DNA from: a virus
Strand: one strand, 5' to 3'
IMG/VR virus record: IMGVR_UViG_3300033997_000310
Location: 1-64,000 of that record
DNA length: 64,000 nucleotides
Every line of letters begins with the position of its first letter. Position 1 is the stretch's first letter. This document shows positions 2,946 through 51,412 of the stretch, piece after piece. Position numbers and translations under genes: made by a program. Below the pieces are notes generated by a model. That model saw only the letters and a list, made by a program, of their open reading frames with translations. It was not told the origin of the DNA and ran no database searches.

Positions 2946-4133
2946 TCAAATCTCCGCGTATCTGCGGCGCACTTCGTCCTGTCGCTCCATTTCCCGCTTG
3001 GTCTGCGAGAAGGACAGGGACTTGCACCAGTAGTCGTTCTTGATCAGCGCCTTTGCGATCCGGCGCCAGCTCGGGGCCTTGCGCTGCGCCTCCAGATTCG
3101 GGTCGGCCGTATCCGGCACATCCAGCATGCCGTGGTCGGCCCACCAGCGCAGGAACACCTCGATCTTCTTCTGGAAGTGCGAACGGGTGACGGGCGGCAT
3201 GCTGTCAAGCAGGAATTGCGCGTAGCTGCGCCATGTGTGGCCCGCCGGCAGTTCCACGGTGCGGTTGCCCAGGATCGTGCCGCCGCAATACAGCGCCCCG
3301 AAATTCGCGCCGCTCACGCGGGCAACGACGCGGCCCCACGTCTCGGGCTCCAGCAGGTGGAACAGCCATAGGCCACGGCGCTGGTCATCGCCGTAGGGCT
3401 GGCAAATGCGCTGCTGGCTCAGCGGGACGCCGGCCATCTGCATCAAGTCGTAGATGCGGTTGTAGCTCCAGCCAAACCGGGCGTTGGCCGTCCAAATGTC
3501 CTCTGTCGCCCAGTCATAGATCGGGTAGGCGTTGAACAGGCCGGGTCGCACCTGCGTCGTCCACATCAGGTTATCCAACCTGGACTTCTTATCGTTCTTG
3601 AGGGTGCGGAACCGGTTCAGGCTTTCGTCGGCGCGGATGCCGACCAGACAGCATGTGCGCTGGCCGCCGGCGAACCACTCGCCAAAGGCGGGCACAAACT
3701 CCTCAAACTCCATGCCACGGCGGAAGAATGGATATGCGCTCTCGTCGCTGACGACGCCGGGCGCCGCCGGCAACTCCCGCACCCACATGTCCCGCGCACC
3801 AGGATCCCAGCACAGCCAATGCGGCTGGTGCGACGACGTCGCGTTGCGCAGGTGAATCGGCAGGCACACCCAATGGGCCCGGATTCCGGGCTGGGCCAGC
3901 ATCTCAGCTACATGGTCCATGGTGGACCGGTATTGCGCCTCAAGGTCAACAACCAGCACGTCCAACGGCAGCCGGCCGCGCTCGCGCGCCACCTTAAGGG
4001 CCAGATGCAGCATCACCGACGAATCCTTGCCGCCACTGAACGACAGATAGACCCGCTCGAAACGGTCGAACACGACCCGCAGCCTTTCCAGCGCTGCCTC
4101 GTAGACGTTCATAGGCAATTCACGCTTGCTCAT
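2946..4133 (-). CDS. ibrA: IbrA/YbdN-like PAPS-reductase-family PP-loop protein (DUF3440)
   Basis: SFSGGKDS PP-loop, GIRADESLNR, YPIYDW, QRICQPYG, KNDYWCK. Confidence 0.9.
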   Translation of the reverse strand: MSKRELPMNVYEAALERLRVVFDRFERVYLSFSGGKDSSVMLHLALKVARERGRLPLDVLVVDLEAQYRSTMDHVAEMLAQPGIRAHWVCLPIHLRNATSSHQPHWLCWDPGARDMWVRELPAAPGVVSDESAYPFFRRGMEFEEFVPAFGEWFAGGQRTCCLVGIRADESLNRFRTLKNDKKSRLDNLMWTTQVRPGLFNAYPIYDWATEDIWTANARFGWSYNRIYDLMQMAGVPLSQQRICQPYGDDQRRGLWLFHLLEPETWGRVVARVSGANFGALYCGGTILGNRTVELPAGHTWRSYAQFLLDSMPPVTRSHFQKKIEVFLRWWADHGMLDVPDTADPNLEAQRKAPSWRRIAKALIKNDYWCKSLSFSQTKREMERQDEVRRRYAEI

Positions 4134-5623
4134 ATTGTCCCCATGAATTGCTTTAGCATGGCCTCGGCCTTGCGTTTCGACTTCTCGGCCCGGATCACCG
4201 CTAGTTGGTCGCGGAACGTCTTGGCCGCGTCCTGCTTGTTGCCCAGGCAGCGCTGTATCATCCCCTCGATGCTGTCGCGGGCGACAAGGTCGATATGGGC
4301 GACGCTGTGCTTCTGCGTCGGTGCCTGAGTGCGGGCCTCGCACTGCCGGCGGTCGCGGCCCTTGAACGTGGTCGAATAGTGGATGTGATAGTTGGCCGCC
4401 GACAGGTCGAGCGCCCGCGCCGCCGTGGCTTGGTTCAGCACCAGCCAGCGGAACCCGCCGGCCTGGAACCGCTGGCGACGCTCGGTGCGATCCGCATCGC
4501 CGACGCGGCCATCATAGGTCTCGACGGCATCGGCCCCGAACCTGGCCCGCAGCGTCGCGGCGGCAGTGTCGACGCAGCCGGCATACTTGCACCAGACCAG
4601 CACCTGGCGGTCTGGCTCTATGCGCTCCGCAACGCGCAACAGCAGTTGAGCACGAGGGTTCGTCTCAATGTCGTCAAACAGAGATGCTCCAGGCTCAAGC
4701 GTGTCGTTATCCATCTGGACGATGCTGCGCCAGTTCCACATGAACCCGCAGGCGATGCGCTGCAGGGCGCTGAACAGGCGATAGATCGTCGCGTCGCCCC
4801 AATCAAAAGCCTCAACGTGGCATAGTATTCGCTTCTTCGCTTCCTCGTAGATAGTGCGCTGCCAATTCGTCATACTGAAGTGCTCTTCCGACCACGTCTC
4901 CTTTGGCAGGTCGAAGCATTCTTCGCGGCGCACCTGGAACACGTATGGAGCAATCTTTGCCGTGATGACGCCAATGTTCTTTCGGTGCGTCACCCGGCGC
5001 CGGCGGCCCGGCTCGTCGCTGAACTCCAAGTGGCGCACAGCGAATTGCCGATATGACCAATAGCCAAGGATCTTCGGCGACAGCCATGTGATCGGGGCGT
5101 ACAGGTCTTCGATGCCGTTCCCGATGGGCGTGCCATCCAAAATTAGGCGATATGGCATCTTCTCAGCCATTTGCATCAGGCGGCGCGTGCGGATGGCTCT
5201 GTGATTGGCGCACATGCCGGCTTCATCGACGATCACAAAAGCGCCGTTGGTAAGCTCTCGGCATACCTGGAAAATGCGAAGGCTTGAGCTCAACCCCTCC
5301 AGGCCGACGATGTACCATGTCGCCTCCGGTATCGTCCCTGGCTTGGTCTTGTCACCCATGACATGCACGCTGCTGCCGGGCAGGTGCTTCTCAACCTCCT
5401 CAGCAATAGTCTCCATGCTGTCTGTCGGGCAGAACCAGACAACGCGCTTGGCCCGCCCGGTCATCAGCCTGGGGACGGCCAGCTCCATGGCTGTGCGGCT
5501 CTTGCCCGTGCGCATGTCCATGAACAGCGCGCCGACCTTGATTCGGGACAGCTTCTCAACCGCCCGACGCTGGTGATCCATCAGCGGGAACATCGTCGAG
5601 AAGGTCGGGGTGGATATCGACAT
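4130..5623 (-). CDS. SNF2-family (SF2) helicase
   Basis: MRTGKS (motif I), VDEA (II), LDGTP (III), QCEAR (VI). Confidence 0.85.
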   Translation of the reverse strand: MSISTPTFSTMFPLMDHQRRAVEKLSRIKVGALFMDMRTGKSRTAMELAVPRLMTGRAKRVVWFCPTDSMETIAEEVEKHLPGSSVHVMGDKTKPGTIPEATWYIVGLEGLSSSLRIFQVCRELTNGAFVIVDEAGMCANHRAIRTRRLMQMAEKMPYRLILDGTPIGNGIEDLYAPITWLSPKILGYWSYRQFAVRHLEFSDEPGRRRRVTHRKNIGVITAKIAPYVFQVRREECFDLPKETWSEEHFSMTNWQRTIYEEAKKRILCHVEAFDWGDATIYRLFSALQRIACGFMWNWRSIVQMDNDTLEPGASLFDDIETNPRAQLLLRVAERIEPDRQVLVWCKYAGCVDTAAATLRARFGADAVETYDGRVGDADRTERRQRFQAGGFRWLVLNQATAARALDLSAANYHIHYSTTFKGRDRRQCEARTQAPTQKHSVAHIDLVARDSIEGMIQRCLGNKQDAAKTFRDQLAVIRAEKSKRKAEAMLKQFMGTI

Positions 5624-44659: not shown

Positions 44660-45805
44660 ATGCCGGTTCTGAGTTACAAGTATCGCCTGTATCCGACACG
44701 CGCCCAAGGTGATGCGTTGACGGCGATGCTCGGCTCTTTCTGCGAATTGTACAATGCGGCCTTGCAGCAACGCATAGAAGCATACCGCCGTCAGGGAAAA
44801 ACGCTTCGTTATATTGACCAGGCCGGCGAGTTGAAGTCAGTGCGCGCCGTTGACGAACAGATGGCTGGCTACAGTTACAGTGCGGAGCAGCAGGTATTGC
44901 GCCGGCTAGACAAGGCATTTTCTGCTTTTTTTGGACGGATAAAAAAGGGAAAGGCTGGCTTCCCACGCTTTCGCGCCAAGAGCATGTTTGACAGTGCCGA
45001 ATTTAGGTTCGGTGACGGACTGACGATTCGGAAGACTGGAAAGCTTAGGGTTGCCGGAATTGACGGAGAAATAAAGGTAAAATGGCACAGAGATATTCCT
45101 GTTCGAGCAAAGATTGGCGCGGCAGTAATATCCAGATCATGCGGCAAATGGTACATATGCTTTCAGATCACCATGCCAGACGCTTATGGACCTTGGCCCG
45201 ACAAGGGAGCGGTCGGCATCGACATGGGTCTGTCGAACCTGATCGCCACATCGGACGGCGAGACGGTGCGGACGCCGCAATTCACCAAGGATGCGGTCAA
45301 GAAGCAGCGCAGGCTTCAGCGTAGTCTCGCGCGCTGCAAGCGGGGCTCCAAGGGGCGGGCAAAGGCCCGGCGTAACCTTGCGCGGCACAGCGCCAAAACG
45401 GCTAATCGCCGCAGGGACTTTGCGCACAAACTTTCCCGCTCCTTGGTAGAACGCCACAGCACCATAGCGGTTGAGGACCTGAACATCACCGTATTGGCCC
45501 GTGCGATACTTGCCAAGTCGGTCCATAATGCCGCGTGGGCGCAGTTGCTGGGGATGATCGGATACAAAGCCGCAAATGCTGGTGTTCGGGTGATCGCCGT
45601 CAACCCACGGGGAACAAGCCAAACGTGCCCGGAGTGCGGAGCTTTGGCCGTCAAAAAGCTTGCGACCAGAGTTCATAACTGCGCAAATTGCGGCTGTGTT
45701 ATGGATCGAGATGTTGCGGCGGCCATGGTTATACTTAAACGGGCGCTTTCTGAAATGGGGCCGGGACACGGCCTTGAGACGATAAGTGGGCGGATTGCCG
45801 CGTAA
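44660..45805 (+). CDS. tnpB: RNA-guided endonuclease TnpB
   Basis: YKYRLYPT, GIDMG, VEDL, TSQTCPECG..CANCG, DRDVAAA; RuvC D-E-D intact. Confidence 0.95.
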   Translation: MPVLSYKYRLYPTRAQGDALTAMLGSFCELYNAALQQRIEAYRRQGKTLRYIDQAGELKSVRAVDEQMAGYSYSAEQQVLRRLDKAFSAFFGRIKKGKAGFPRFRAKSMFDSAEFRFGDGLTIRKTGKLRVAGIDGEIKVKWHRDIPVRAKIGAAVISRSCGKWYICFQITMPDAYGPWPDKGAVGIDMGLSNLIATSDGETVRTPQFTKDAVKKQRRLQRSLARCKRGSKGRAKARRNLARHSAKTANRRRDFAHKLSRSLVERHSTIAVEDLNITVLARAILAKSVHNAAWAQLLGMIGYKAANAGVRVIAVNPRGTSQTCPECGALAVKKLATRVHNCANCGCVMDRDVAAAMVILKRALSEMGPGHGLETISGRIAA

Positions 45806-47110: not shown

Positions 47111-47638
47111 ATGTCCAAAGATGCTATACGTGCGTCAGGAATTACACAAGAGAAGCTTAAACAGATTATTTCATACGACCCGTCAACCGGACATTTCACT
47201 TGGCTTGTCCGCAGGTCGTGGCGCGTATTGCCTGGAATGAGAGCCGGCACGATCAATTCATCTGGTCATAGACAGATTAATATCGGGAAGTGTTTGGTAT
47301 TGGCTCACAGGCTTGCCTGGTTCTACATGACTGGAAAAATTCCAAATGGGGAAATTGACCATAAAAATAGAAACAGAGATGACAATAGGTGGGATAATAT
47401 TAGAGAGTCCACTAGATCGACAAATTGCGCAAATAAGGAAAAGCCTGCAACAAACACAAGCGGCTTCAAAGGTGTCAGCCTACATAAACGAACAGGAAAA
47501 TGGCAGGCGACAGTAAAGGTAAACGGAAAAGTGAAATATATTGGCATGTTTGCGGACAAAGTAGAAGCCGCTGCCGCTTACGCTAAAGCCGCAAATGAAG
47601 CGTTCGGCGAATTCGCATGCACTGACTCTGCCGCTTAA
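47111..47638 (+). CDS. HNH-AP2 homing endonuclease
   Basis: YDPSTG, AHRLAW, IDHKNRNRDDNRWDNIR, NTSGFKGV; low GC. Confidence 0.92.
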   Translation: MSKDAIRASGITQEKLKQIISYDPSTGHFTWLVRRSWRVLPGMRAGTINSSGHRQINIGKCLVLAHRLAWFYMTGKIPNGEIDHKNRNRDDNRWDNIRESTRSTNCANKEKPATNTSGFKGVSLHKRTGKWQATVKVNGKVKYIGMFADKVEAAAAYAKAANEAFGEFACTDSAA

Positions 47639-47841
47639 ATCTTCGACTCAACCAGCTTGGCCTTGCTGAACCACTCGTCATCGCAGATCGGGGCTGCGTC
47701 CGGGTCTGCGTCAATGCCGGCCTGGATTTGCTCGTCGGTGATGGCGTCAATAGCACGCAGGCGCTGCTCGCGCGTGGCCAGTTCGTCGGGCGTCATCTCG
47801 GATTGCGGCTTCAGCGTGCGGCGGATGATGGTCTCGGACAT
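47635..47841 (-). CDS. BrnA-like antitoxin N-terminal region only
   Basis: IDAITDEQIQAGIDADPDAAP..DEWFSKAKLV then stop; GGAG RBS. Confidence 0.6.
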   Translation of the reverse strand: MSETIIRRTLKPQSEMTPDELATREQRLRAIDAITDEQIQAGIDADPDAAPICDDEWFSKAKLVESKI

Positions 47842-47856
47842 AGTGTTCTCCGGTAA

Positions 47857-48359
47857 CTGAGTGGTGCCGGGATGCAATCCCCGATCTCTTTCGCCTTGCG
47901 GCTACTCTACCGGTGAGCCGGGTGCGTGAGGTAGCTGTTCTCACCTTCACCGCTCACCCCAAAAGCCCCAGCCGGCGAACCGGTCTGGGGCTGGTGCTGA
48001 TCCCGTCCGACGCCAGCGACGCCGATGGTGCGGTCAGTTGGGATTTGACATGCGCGAGTTCCGACAGGGGGTAATCTCTCGGCCTTTTTGCTCTGCACTC
48101 AAACCATGCGCCGTGTCGACCCGACGACTTCCGGCCTTTCGCGCCCGGCAGCGTCCTGTCTTGCCCCAGGCGGGTTGATGCTTTTGCCCAAAGGCACCAG
48201 CGCATCTACTGGCTCAGCCACCTCACGGTGACCTCGTAGGCTATGCCTGACCCGAAAGGCCCAGCCACGGCTTTACGTGGTCTGGGCCTGGGGCCGGCGT
48301 GGCGGGGGCTTCCGCCGGCTGCAACGCGGCGCCGGGGCAGGGCGTGTACCGCGTTGTAT
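47857..48359 (-). ncRNA. Large structured RNA candidate A (GOLLD-like)
   Basis: Many nested helices, UUCG and GNRA loops, loop-E AGUA/GAA, probable pseudoknot; starts right after tRNA-Pro CCA. Confidence 0.7.
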
Positions 48360-48437
48360 TGGTCTGTGCGAAGGGATTCGAACCCCCGGCCTCTTGCGCC
48401 CAAGGCAAGCGCTCTACGCTGGCTGAGCTACGCACAG
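48360..48437 (-). tRNA. tRNA-Pro(UGG)
   Basis: CTGTGCG/CGCACAG, CTTGC-CT-TGG-GC-GCAAG, GGTTCGAATCC, A73, CCA. Confidence 0.93.
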
Positions 48438-48440
48438 AAA

Positions 48441-48920
48441 CTGAATTGGTCGGGCCGGCACTGTCCGCCGTGCGCTGCCTCAGGTTGCTCTGGAATTCAT
48501 TTATCCGGCCATACAGCCGAACCCAGCCAGTGCGTCCCCGTGAACAGATTTTCCCGCCGACCAAACTCTTGCCCGAAGGCAAAACCGTTGCAGGGCTTCC
48601 ACCTGCTGCTCGGCAACTCCTTGCCTATCTGAGGGGTTCTTTCCGTACCACCCAACAAGACGGCATCTGCGTCCGACTGCCCGACCCGGATTCCGTCACC
48701 ATTAATACCAGCGGATTGGATACCGCATGAATGGGCCGTGCTATCCCCCGGCGAGGATGCGAGTTGCCCATGCGGGCGAAAACAGAAGGCATTTTACCGT
48801 CATACCCAGGACGTTAGAGAAGCGCGGGTAGCTACTGAGACCGCCAGCCATTCTCTATTTGTTGTGGCCGTTCCCGAGAGGTAATTGCCACTTGCCATAG
48901 ATAGCGCTCCATGGCGGCGT
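48441..48920 (-). ncRNA. Large structured RNA candidate B
   Basis: Long-range helices, UUCG hairpin, T-loop-like GGTGGAAGCCC; fills the space between tRNA-Met and tRNA-Pro. Confidence 0.6.
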
Positions 48921-48997
48921 TGGTAGCAGGGGCCAGATTTGAACTGGCGGTCTCGTGGTTATGAGCCACGCGAGATGGGCCGCTTCTCTACCCTGCT
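48921..48997 (-). tRNA. tRNA-Met(CAU), initiator-like
   Basis: AGCAGGG/CCCTGCT, CGTGG-CT-CAT-AA-CCACG, A11-U24, CCA. Confidence 0.9.
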
Positions 48998-49005
48998 TCA
49001 GACCT

Positions 49006-49075
49006 AAAAGACCGGTCGACGACCTGTCGAGCGCCGACCGGTAAGTTTTAGGGAGGAACGTCCAAAGACGCTACG
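49006..49075 (-). ncRNA. alpha-r8 (suhB/MmgR)-like sRNA
   Basis: 5' hairpin CGTC-TTTG-GACG, then TTCCTCCCTAAAACTT, then terminator ACCGGTCG/CGACCGGT + TTTT. Confidence 0.7.
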
Positions 49076-49081
49076 CAACGG

Positions 49082-49110
49082 AAGGTATGAAATGACCACA
49101 TAAAGCGCAA
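49082..49110 (-). promoter_or_regulatory. Promoter of the sRNA/tRNA/ncRNA cluster with operator
   Basis: TTGCGC-17-TACCTT; ATGAAATGACCACAT 49087-49101. Confidence 0.65.
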
Positions 49111-49413
49111 GGATAAAAATTCATCACGGCGCGATTTTTTGGGATGGACGCTCGAGGCCGGCTGTGATCGCGGATTTCTTGCCGCCGCTCACGCCATGCG
49201 CACAACCTTCCCGTAATGAACAAAGTCAATATAGCCGAACGTCAACAAAATCGAGTTGTAATTGGCGAAATTTGCACTAGAGTTTGCGTGAGTTCCGAGT
49301 CGCGCCCAACTTGCGGCAAGGATAATGATAAATACTCATGACGCTTTCGGGGTGGCCCCGGCGTCAATTCAGGCTCCGGCAGGGCCGGCGCTCAACCGAA
49401 CCAGAGGTTCCTG

Positions 49414-50325
49414 ATGCTCGCTCCCAACACCACGATCTCGAAGACCAATGCTCTGCGCCACGGGGTGGCTCGGATGGCCCTGGTCACTGGCAATCCTCAC
49501 TTGCGCGCTGCGTTCTTCGATGGTGGCGACGGTGGGGAGGGCGACAAGAAGGCCGATCCGACGAACGATCCGGTCGTCCAGGCACTGATCGCCAAGGCCG
49601 TCGAGGATGCGACGAAGGGTCTGAAGGGCAGCAAGGAAGAAATCCTCACCGAGAAGAAGCAGCTCAAGAGCGAATATGATCGCATCATGGGGCTGGTCGG
49701 CGGTGATGACGGCCTGAAGCGCCTGGAGGACCTGCGCAAGAAGGCCGAGCAGGATGAAGAGTCCAAGCTGATCGCCGACGGCAAGGTTGATCTGGTCATT
49801 GAGCGCCGCACGAACGGCATGCGCGAGAAGCATGGGCAGCAAATCCAGCAACTCGAAAAGCGCGTGAAGGACGTGGAGGCCGAGCGTGACCAGGCCGTCC
49901 AGAAGCTGATTGGCTACAAGACGAACCAGCAGTTGCTGGTGGGTGCGGACGAGGCCGGCGTGAAGCCCGAATATCGGGCAGCGCTGATCTCGCTGGTTCG
50001 CGACCGCGTCAAGCTGGCCGACGAGGGCGGGTCCGATGTTTTCGAGGTCTATGGCGAAGACGGCATCAAGGCGTACAGCCCGAACAACAGCGCCAAGCCG
50101 ATGAGCGTCACCGAGTTGTTCGACAGCCTGCGCGACAAGATGAAGGACGCCTTCCATCCGTCAAGCGGTGGCGGTGCTGGCGGCGGGAGCAAGGCTGCTG
50201 TTGATGGTGCCAAGAACCCGTGGATAAAGGGCCAGCATTTCAATCTCTCTGAGCAGGCTCGCATCATCAAGCAAGACCCGGCGGCGGCAAATCGCCTGAA
50301 GGCAGAAGCCGGCATCCGGGGCTGA
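49414..50325 (+). CDS. Capsid scaffolding protein
   Basis: Coiled coil, SSGGGAGG linker, NPW...FNLSEQARI C-terminus; upstream of MCP; start uncertain. Confidence 0.85.
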   Translation: MLAPNTTISKTNALRHGVARMALVTGNPHLRAAFFDGGDGGEGDKKADPTNDPVVQALIAKAVEDATKGLKGSKEEILTEKKQLKSEYDRIMGLVGGDDGLKRLEDLRKKAEQDEESKLIADGKVDLVIERRTNGMREKHGQQIQQLEKRVKDVEAERDQAVQKLIGYKTNQQLLVGADEAGVKPEYRAALISLVRDRVKLADEGGSDVFEVYGEDGIKAYSPNNSAKPMSVTELFDSLRDKMKDAFHPSSGGGAGGGSKAAVDGAKNPWIKGQHFNLSEQARIIKQDPAAANRLKAEAGIRG

Positions 50326-50425
50326 GTTTCGAGGGTCGCGGGGCGGCTCTCATCAAGACCACCAATTCCGGTCCCCTGGGGGGTCCGGGCAGTAGCAACC
50401 CAAAACCCCCTTTGTGGAGACCAAG

Positions 50426-51412
50426 ATGTCCGTCACGCGCATCTCGGACGTGATCGTCCCGGAAGTGTTCACCCCGTACATGATCGAGCGCACCGCCGAG
50501 CTGTCCGCCCTGTGGCAGTCCGGTATCGTCGATCCCAACCCCGAGTTCACCTCCCTGGCCCAGGGCGGCGGCAATGACGTCAATCTTCCTTTCTGGAAGG
50601 ATCTGACCGGCGACTCCGAATCGGACGATGACGATCCGTCGAACCCGGCCAACCCCGCCAACATCGGCTCCAGCTCCGAAGTCGCCCGCAAGCACTTCAA
50701 GCGCAAGGCCTGGGGTAGCGCCGACCTGGCTGCGTCGCTGGCCGGCGATGATCCGATGCGCGCCATCGCTGATTTCGTGGCCGAATGGTGGACGCGCGAC
50801 ATGCAGCGCAACGCCCTGCTGCCCGCCCTGACCGGTATCTTCGCCGGCCCGCTGGCCAGCACCCATGTGCTGACCAAGGCGACGGAAGACGCCAATACGG
50901 CGCCGGACAGCGCCTTCATCGGCAGCGACAACGTGATCGACTGCGCCAACCTGCTGGGCGACCATTGGGAGCGCGTGACCACCCTGGTCATGCACTCCAA
51001 GCCGTTCTCGCGCCTGCAGAAGCTGAAGCTGATCGAGTATGTTCCGCTGTCTGAGCAGAACATCCAGGTTCCGTTCTTCCTTGGCCGCCGCGTGATCGTC
51101 GATGACGGCTGCCCGGCCGTGAATGGCAGCGCCAGCGGCAAGAAGTACACGACCTACCTGTTTGGCGCGGGAACCATCGCCTATGGCGAGGGCACGCCGA
51201 AGGTGCCGACCGAGACCGACCGCGACTCCCTGGCCGGTATCGATTATCTGGTCACCCGTCGTCACTTCTTCCTGCATCCGCGCGGCCTGAAGTGGGTCGG
51301 CGCCGTCGCCGGCAAGACCCCGACCAATGCCGAGCTGGAATCCGGTTCGTCCTGGAGCCTCGTCTACGAGGCCAAGAACGTGCCGATCCTCAAGCTGGTC
51401 ACCAACGGCTAA
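50426..51412 (+). CDS. Major capsid protein
   Basis: TRISDVIVPEVF, NLPFWKDL, DPMRAI, MHSKPF, VIVDDG, HPRG. Confidence 0.92.
   Translation: MSVTRISDVIVPEVFTPYMIERTAELSALWQSGIVDPNPEFTSLAQGGGNDVNLPFWKDLTGDSESDDDDPSNPANPANIGSSSEVARKHFKRKAWGSADLAASLAGDDPMRAIADFVAEWWTRDMQRNALLPALTGIFAGPLASTHVLTKATEDANTAPDSAFIGSDNVIDCANLLGDHWERVTTLVMHSKPFSRLQKLKLIEYVPLSEQNIQVPFFLGRRVIVDDGCPAVNGSASGKKYTTYLFGAGTIAYGEGTPKVPTETDRDSLAGIDYLVTRRHFFLHPRGLKWVGAVAGKTPTNAELESGSSWSLVYEAKNVPILKLVTNG

Follow-up and report, generated by a model that had tools for sequence, protein, structure and literature searches.

The 483-nt spacer between two phage tRNA genes contains, on comparative evidence, a real feature of about 172 nt that is predicted to be a conserved folded RNA (48587-48758, minus strand). 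We consider it probable that this is a small stable phage non-coding RNA (ncRNA) from an uncatalogued family, about 170-190 nt long, which would derive from a minus-strand tRNA transcript and be released by tRNA processing. The window, i.e. the whole 64-kb stretch of DNA analysed here, is the first 64 kb of the 114,801-bp IMG/VR virus record IMGVR_UViG_3300033997_000310, which has direct terminal repeats and was assembled from a subsurface metagenome.

The spacer belongs to a stretch of about 1.5 kb (47880-49380) that is non-coding, as the codon-position GC periodicity present in the flanking genes is absent there. Moreover, no ORF of the spacer has a Pfam or PHROG match, in agreement with the preliminary description, which had seen no credible ORF. 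Since both tRNA genes lie on the minus strand (Table 1), the order in the RNA is tRNA-Met, the 483-nt spacer and tRNA-Pro. The location given beforehand, between these two tRNAs, was right, the gap being at 48438-48920, but the plus-strand reading and order were wrong, the RNA being on the minus strand. The complete minus-strand order is a suhB/mmgR-like sRNA, tRNA-Met, the spacer, tRNA-Pro, a second spacer with a skipping-rope-like end and a small ORF. As the sub-threshold sRNA carries a terminator-like hairpin (49016-49030) and abuts tRNA-Met, the tRNA gene begins directly after that hairpin, which is the only minus-strand terminator-like site in this region. A promoter search around the RNA cluster gave no clear candidate. 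The tRNA unit is on the minus strand and the neighbouring genes are on the plus strand; thus, the unit is antisense to its neighbours. Given the TnpB-type gene and the HNH endonuclease just to the left, the RNA cluster sits in a mobile, accessory island between head genes.

Table 1. Features of the RNA cluster and its surroundings (positions in the window; core features are named in the sense of the minus-strand RNA)
Feature	Position	Strand	Remarks
TnpB/IS605-OrfB-type transposase	44660-45805	+	OrfB_IS605 and Cas12f1-like TNB domains; left of RNA cluster
HNH_3 endonuclease	47111-47638	+	Weak sub-threshold AP2 match; left of RNA cluster
Small ORF	47635-47877	-	Clear codon periodicity, no Pfam/PHROG match; directly downstream of RNA cluster
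Skipping-rope RNA match	47860-47954	-	Sub-threshold, 28.3 bits vs 36.7, E 6e-4; 3' end of second spacer
tRNA-Pro (UGG)	48360-48437	-	ARAGORN; Rfam RF00005, 61.6 bits; downstream of spacer in RNA sense
Spacer between tRNA-Met and tRNA-Pro	48438-48920	-	483 nt
3' flank of spacer	48438-48586	-	No conservation or family detected; MFE z = -0.97
UUGCC-UUCG-GGCAA hairpin	48569-48582	-	Just 3' of core; absent from L068 and L070 alignments
Conserved RNA core	48587-48758	-	About 172 nt; homologues in pRlX5 and L070
T-loop hairpin H6, GCAGG-UGGAAGC-CCUGC	48590-48606	-	Loop GGUGGAAGCC; trio form GCNGG-UGRAAGC-CCNGC
Junction GCA	48607-48609	-	Directly 5' of T-loop hairpin; invariant in trio
Hairpin H5, GGCAA-GGAG-UUGCC	48612-48625	-	In homologues GGCC-CGAAA-GGCC and GCCA-GGAG-UGGC
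Junction UCAGAU	48627-48632	-	Conserved in trio; family consensus CAGAG/CAGAU after equivalent hairpin in most members
Hairpin H4	48634-48653	-	First of 3' domain; compensatory changes in trio and family alignment (helix 1)
Invariant 33-nt block	48663-48695	-	CGGAAUCCGGGUCGGGCAGUCGGACGCAGAUGC; identical in three sequences otherwise about 25% diverged
Variable hairpin Hb	48696-48737	-	Length and sequence vary across homologues, pairing preserved
Hairpin Ha, AUCCUC-GCCG-GGGGAU	48743-48758	-	Same in all three homologues
5' flank of spacer	48759-48920	-	No match in phages/plasmids, no Rfam match at E<=10; MFE z = -1.09
tRNA-Met (CAU)	48921-48997	-	ARAGORN; Rfam RF00005, 61.7 bits; upstream of spacer in RNA sense
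suhB/mmgR-like sRNA	48998-49078	-	Sub-threshold, 27.3 bits vs cut-off 41; abuts 5' end of tRNA-Met
Head scaffold	49414-50325	+	Right of RNA cluster
Major capsid protein	50414-51412	+	Right of RNA cluster

The sequence of the spacer, taken alone, does not support structure above chance. The preliminary description had proposed a structured RNA of about 480 nt with long-range closing stems and a pseudoknot. All the complementarities that it listed are present letter for letter (48446-53/48557-64, 48612-19/48761-68, 48659-63/48797-801 and 48815-21/48851-57, together with the UUCG hairpin at 48569-82, the GCACTG/CAGTGC pairing and GCAGG-TGGAAGC-CCTGC), but they are no commoner than in shuffled sequence. 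Indeed, the spacer contains 3 perfect 8-mer complementary pairs against 2.0 +/- 1.8 in dinucleotide shuffles and 8 perfect 7-mer pairs against 8.2, and the whole-spacer MFE z-scores (minus strand -0.11, plus strand -0.43) are ordinary. A cmscan of window 47300-49500 with Rfam, at gathering thresholds and at E<=10, left the spacer empty, tmRNA and ribozyme models included; the matches at E<=10 were the two tRNAs and the skipping-rope-like and suhB-like RNAs, all outside the spacer. The group I intron, RNase P and GOLLD/ROOL models, among which a relative had been suspected, gave no match even at E<=10, and neither an ARAGORN call nor an RF00005 match at E<=10 pointed to a tRNA or tRNA pseudogene inside 48438-48920. 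With stems at chance level, a shuffle-like folding energy and no Rfam match, a 480-nt ornate RNA is unsupported.

What stands from that proposal is a structured ncRNA punctuated by tRNAs and belonging to no Rfam family, of which only about 170 nt are conserved. The long-range closing stems and the pseudoknot each have a partner that is not part of the conserved core and has no equivalent in the homologues: 48612-48625 is a local hairpin with its own covariation and its supposed partner 48761-68 lies beyond the core, the pseudoknot partner 48797-801 of 48659-63 lies in a flank without homologues, and the stems 48446-53/48557-64 and 48815-21/48851-57 are both in such flanks. The UUCG hairpin, just 3' of the core, is not kept in the homologues either, and is possibly a 3' protective hairpin. 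The two flanks, of about 150 nt each, have no homologue and no statistical sign of structure (z about -1 to +0.9). Covariation thus supports the local hairpins within 48587-48758 and lends nothing to the long-range pairs or the pseudoknot; the T-loop-like hairpin GCAGG-UGGAAGC-CCUGC, already noticed beforehand, gained comparative support, since it covaries from A-U to C-G.

GOLLD and ROOL are known to adjoin tRNAs in phages. The element resembles them as a phage or prophage ncRNA of the kind often adjoining tRNA genes, but they measure 500-800 nt and have different conserved cores, in contrast to the roughly 170 nt conserved here. A large ornate RNA of this type or a large ribozyme, about 480 nt long or about 1.06 kb with tRNA-Pro embedded, might be expected from the non-coding character of the entire 1.5-kb stretch and from the adjoining 500-nt segment 47860-48359, whose MFE z-score of -2.6 contrasts with that of the studied spacer. 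We nevertheless judge it very improbable: besides the silence of the Rfam models and the chance number of stems, conservation stops at 48587 and 48758 in both homologues, which leaves the long-range partners in unconserved flanks. As for a single 1.06-kb RNA, the two spacers are dissimilar, and no homologue is common to both sides of tRNA-Pro.

The homologues came from searches of plasmid and virus collections. In a BLAST against plasmids with the 1.55-kb region as query, the single non-tRNA match was plasmid pRlX5 of Rhizobium leguminosarum TP16, which is 75% identical to window 48589-48758 (E 2e-17); this copy, at NZ_CP140867.1 684434-684594 on the plus strand of the record, occupies the intergenic space between divergent genes, next to a gene for a C-5 cytosine methyltransferase. 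A search with a 20-mer of the most conserved block added a third copy, with 74% identity, in IMGVR_UViG_3300022932_000060 (L070), between the large terminase and portal genes and on the strand of these genes. The three loci have nothing in common outside the approximately 170 nt, and conservation has sharp boundaries at 48587 and 48758. With the pRlX5 copy as query, BLAST gave no further matches among plasmids and phages. The 5' blocks were also used in exact-pattern scans, with ATCCTCGCCGGGGGATA, a two-anchor pattern and three fragments of the 33-nt block; these returned only L070 and chance matches, and a metagenome scan yielded the L070 contig again and seven chance matches. Across all collections searched, the full-length element is therefore known from three replicons, with one copy in each. 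Capsid relatives in IMG/VR and GTDB genomes (L002-L065) share at most 53% identity and showed no tRNAs and no similarity to the spacer; the closest capsid relatives, at 73-77% identity, were found only in Logan assemblies. Among sequencing runs, the stretch was found only in the probable source sample, and no RNA run is listed as containing it; a comparison with three runs returned the source contig unchanged and, from the other runs, tRNA matches only.

The consensus fold of the trio (RNAalifold) favors the minus strand, with -49.9 kcal/mol and 13 compensatory pairs against -36.0 kcal/mol and 6 compensatory pairs on the plus strand. The minus strand is also that of the tRNAs in the window, and it corresponds to the strand of the flanking genes in L070. 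Scored on the same three-sequence alignment from which it was derived, the trio structure has 93.7% of its pair cells paired against 36-49% when the 3' partners are slid, and 13 compensatory pairs against 1-4 in the slid controls.

These comparisons bear on the idea that the spacer is non-functional filler and that the 170-nt similarity is hitch-hiking DNA, e.g. a recombination scar or mobile-element remnant without RNA function. Such an origin would suit the accessory island with its TnpB-type transposase and HNH endonuclease, the rarity of the full-length element and folding energies no better than those of shuffles. However, neutral DNA diverged by 25% would not hold 33 and 17 nt invariant nor compensate changes in hairpin arms. 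Moreover, more than 100 contigs carry the 3' hairpin motif, with each of the four Watson-Crick pair types represented (see below), the element is present once per replicon and the spacer is not repeated elsewhere in the genome. We therefore regard filler as highly unlikely.

A small-protein gene, present or former, is another way in which the stretch might be conserved, and the L070 contig gives it some substance: a 114-aa ORF (4100-4444), whose start overlaps the preceding ORF by ATGA, covers the element there, and its frame is also open from stop to stop in the window. In the window, however, no start codon occurs in this frame until the middle of the element; in pRlX5 a stop breaks the frame, and the 5' block there belongs to another one. 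The three copies have no open frame in common. The frame of the 3' block differs as well (SSRWKPC in the window, QQVKALH in L070), as does the reading frame of the 33-nt block relative to the other blocks. This 33-nt block, moreover, shows no synonymous change across 11 consecutive codons. Together with the lack of codon periodicity and of any Pfam/PHROG match, these data leave a protein-coding explanation a next to negligible chance.

The core divides into two halves. The 5' half, of about 85 nt, consists of an invariant hairpin (Ha), a variable hairpin (Hb) and then the invariant 33-nt block. Ha sits in an invariant 17-nt block (48742-48758) and contains a U-G pair, whose plus-strand equivalent would be C-A, and the Hb helices (3 and 4 of the trio structure) have changes on both sides in 5/7 pairs. 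The 3' half is a three-hairpin domain, H4-UCAGAU-H5-GCA-H6, in which the first junction reads UCAGA(U/G) across the trio.

The 3' domain has a much wider distribution than the full-length element. In IMG/VR, a search pattern based on the 3' block, with three positions left free (GCAGCNGGTGNAAGCCCNGCA), found the H6 hairpin motif in 108 contigs, against 12 for a mirror-image control of the same composition (9-fold enrichment). The two free stem positions, which make up the middle pair of the stem, are Watson-Crick in 75 of the 81 copies fetched (A-U 27, C-G 27, G-C 18 and U-A 3), and 77 copies have G or A at the free loop position. Because the search pattern had GCA as a fixed element, finding this triplet in the family matches is uninformative by itself. 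Upstream of the motif, most copies have two hairpins separated by CAGAG or CAGAU. A short example of a family member is L133:1727-1817. A covariance model based on the trio recovered the family copies. In the family alignment, 94% of the cells are paired, compared with 31-43% for slid partners, and each of the ten H4 and H5 pairs has changes on both sides; this alignment was fitted to the model and about half of its rows are gapped in H4/H5, so the family is heterogeneous. The window's copy has the layout hairpin - CAGA(G/U) - hairpin - GCA - GCNGG-UGRAAGC-CCNGC - A that defines the module and scores 53.3 bits (E 2e-12) against the family model R2, which was built from 81 copies including the window's own, the search pattern itself being derived from the window sequence. 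No credible second copy was found in the 114.8-kb genome, where the next best scores were 18.6 and 12.7 bits. As judged from these alignments, the three-hairpin T-loop module is an uncatalogued family with no fitting Rfam entry, and a literature search found no description of the motif.

The surroundings of the family members differ. In six contigs, the module lies within a tRNA array and ends 8-9 nt before the next tRNA, often reading ...GCACCA. Contigs L098, L143 and L109 have arrays of 18-23 tRNAs in about 10 kb, where a module of about 90 nt with a GCACCA end fills one slot. In three contigs, the module is 55-145 nt from a phage-encoded permuted tmRNA gene; these two-piece genes (L096:1954-2271, L099:5567-5921 and one in L127) are on the same strand as the module, and the tmRNA scores in these contigs are 141 and 97 bits for RF04321 and 147 bits for beta_tmRNA. 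In Aeromonas phage phiA005, the module lies in a gap without annotation, and the genes for tRNA-Thr and tRNA-Met follow about 90 nt downstream. The majority of the other copies lack a tRNA in their vicinity; thus, tRNA-linked processing is not general in the family. A shared downstream gene family, as expected of a cis-regulator, was not found among 10 family loci.

Other RNAs were observed near some copies. Three contigs of one subtype carry the Burkholderiales-2 RNA motif above threshold (L087:6245-6311, L122:1410-1476 and L159:4420-4493), 0.4-1.6 kb from the module and on the opposite strand. Immediately downstream of the module in L146, a sub-threshold isrK-like match (3174-3262, minus strand) scores 29.9 bits against a cut-off of 50. 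In L070, ARAGORN calls a 97-nt 'tRNA-Arg(GCG)' with a good T-arm at 4941-5037 (plus strand), 636 nt downstream of the element. At its gathering threshold, the tRNA model of Rfam does not report this RNA, which may be tRNA-like or an unusual tRNA with a long arm.

The loop of H6 has a close parallel in twister-sister ribozymes. In the twister-sister crystal structure, G29-C37 closes the loop and U30-A34 is the T-loop pair (PMC5660989); G35 and U36 are extruded, and an adenine of loop L1 is inserted between A33 and A34 by intercalation (PMC5660989). The P4 loop of twister is similar (PMC6154101). The sequence at 48590-48606 conforms to the SL4 T-loop pattern G-U-G-N-A-A-G-Y-C, the RF02681 consensus being GCCgGUGCAAGCCcGGC, and the loop letters are GUGGAAGCC in H6 and GUGCAAGCC in twister-sister. 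H6 would thus have, like the twister-sister P4-SL4, a G-C closing pair, a U...A T-loop pair, a GNA triloop and two extruded bases. As in twister-sister, the T-loop hairpin is preceded by another hairpin in a multi-helix junction, and both RNAs occur in phage DNA.

The remainder of the element is unlike twister-sister. It has no P1-L1-P2 arm, its junction strands are UCAGAU and GCA, and it possesses an extra 5' half of about 85 nt with invariant blocks. The L1 internal loop, in which GCAAG stands opposite GCUCAU and which includes the C-A cleavage site, is absent from the trio alignment. RF02681, whose gathering threshold is 34 bits, has no match at E<=10 in window 47300-49500 and none at E<=1 in 19 other family loci; the best family member, L104, reaches 22.1 bits (E 0.025), below that cut-off. 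The strands flanking H4 are (C/U)UGU and UCAGAU, and a permuted twister-sister formed through a P2-like helix around H4 was rejected, the mean being 4.29 against 4.20 with shuffled partners; such a helix is present in a subset of members (L142, L156, L158 and L164). As read from its sequence, the element carries a T-loop of the twister-sister type, and its membership in these ribozymes fails on the other defining features.

A self-cleaving ribozyme, as a rearranged relative of twister-sister that cuts the tRNA-sRNA precursor into pieces, appears unlikely on these grounds. Its T-loop hairpin would dock on the UCAGAU/GCA junction or on the 33-nt block and so form the active site. The proposal draws on the identity of the H6 loop with the SL4 loop GUG(C)AAG(C/U)C, which builds the active site with loop L1 in twister-sister (PMC5660989), on the one sub-threshold match, on invariant single-stranded blocks of a kind typical of catalytic cores and on the clustering of self-cleaving ribozymes in phage regions (PMC10085705). 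Against it stand the missing matches, the missing GCAAG/GCUCAU loop between P1 and P2 and the P2-like pairing around H4 that is no better than with shuffled partners. T-loops are, moreover, generic tertiary modules, which twister, RNase P and tRNA also use, so that the presence of one is no proof of catalysis.

The module also resembles parts of a tRNA. Its T-loop hairpin shares with the T-arm a 5-bp stem and a 7-nt loop with U at position 1 and A at position 5, and many family members have A-CC(A/U) after this hairpin, as at a tRNA 3' end. Unlike in the T-arm, the loop reads UGRAAGC rather than UUCRANY; the acceptor stem and the anticodon arm are missing, neither ARAGORN nor RF00005 detects the module, and AAC, not ACC, follows in the window's copy. 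There is some chance, which we put low, that the T-loop module forms the core of a class of functional RNA that is carried by many phages and not yet described, either with a new ribozyme architecture or as a mimic of the top half of tRNA. In the first variant, the T-loop of twister-sister and twister would be reused in a new self-cleaving architecture; in the second, the T-arm-like hairpin with ACC(A) would engage host tRNA enzymes, e.g. the CCA-adding enzyme or RNase P. In that case, the 172-nt RNA of the window would be a more elaborate member of the class, extended by an effector domain.

The species 1 and species 2 RNAs of phage T4 are small stable RNAs encoded in phage tRNA clusters. The element of the window resembles them as a non-tRNA RNA gene between tRNA genes of the same strand, probably freed by tRNA-processing enzymes. 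A link to T4-type species RNAs was not upheld, since BLAST with one family member found only two Aeromonas phages and no T4-like phage.

For the small stable ncRNA that we favor, the element would be co-transcribed with tRNA-Met and tRNA-Pro; host RNase P and the 3' tRNA-processing enzymes would excise the flanking tRNAs and free it, and the RNA would then be trimmed back to its stable structure and act in trans during infection. By analogy with the same loop in twister-sister, H6 (G-UGGAA-GC-C) should be an organiser of the compact fold, which it would lock by taking up an intercalating purine from a conserved single-stranded segment. The invariant blocks, likewise by analogy, are likely to be a binding or active surface for a host protein or RNA. 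This reading is supported by a core conserved in three unrelated replicons in which all flanking DNA is different, and by invariant blocks of 17 and 33 nt that adjoin hairpins with compensatory changes. Counting against it are the restriction to three full-length homologues, the MFE z-score of the core alone (+0.63), the lack of a clear promoter and the 114-aa ORF over the element in L070.

Phage tRNA clusters have long been known to carry stable RNAs other than tRNAs, without known function, and we know of no biological role for twister-sister ribozymes. Our analysis replaces a vague structured RNA of 480 nt with a defined element of 172 nt and a predicted secondary structure, for which a homologue is available in a cultivable bacterium, on plasmid pRlX5 of Rhizobium leguminosarum TP16. 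It also ties the element to a hairpin module carried by more than 100 contigs of uncultivated phages and covered by no Rfam family. If the module were catalytic or tRNA-mimicking, phage biology would gain a widespread class of RNA; if it were neither, it would still be a clean example of the reuse of a T-loop module.
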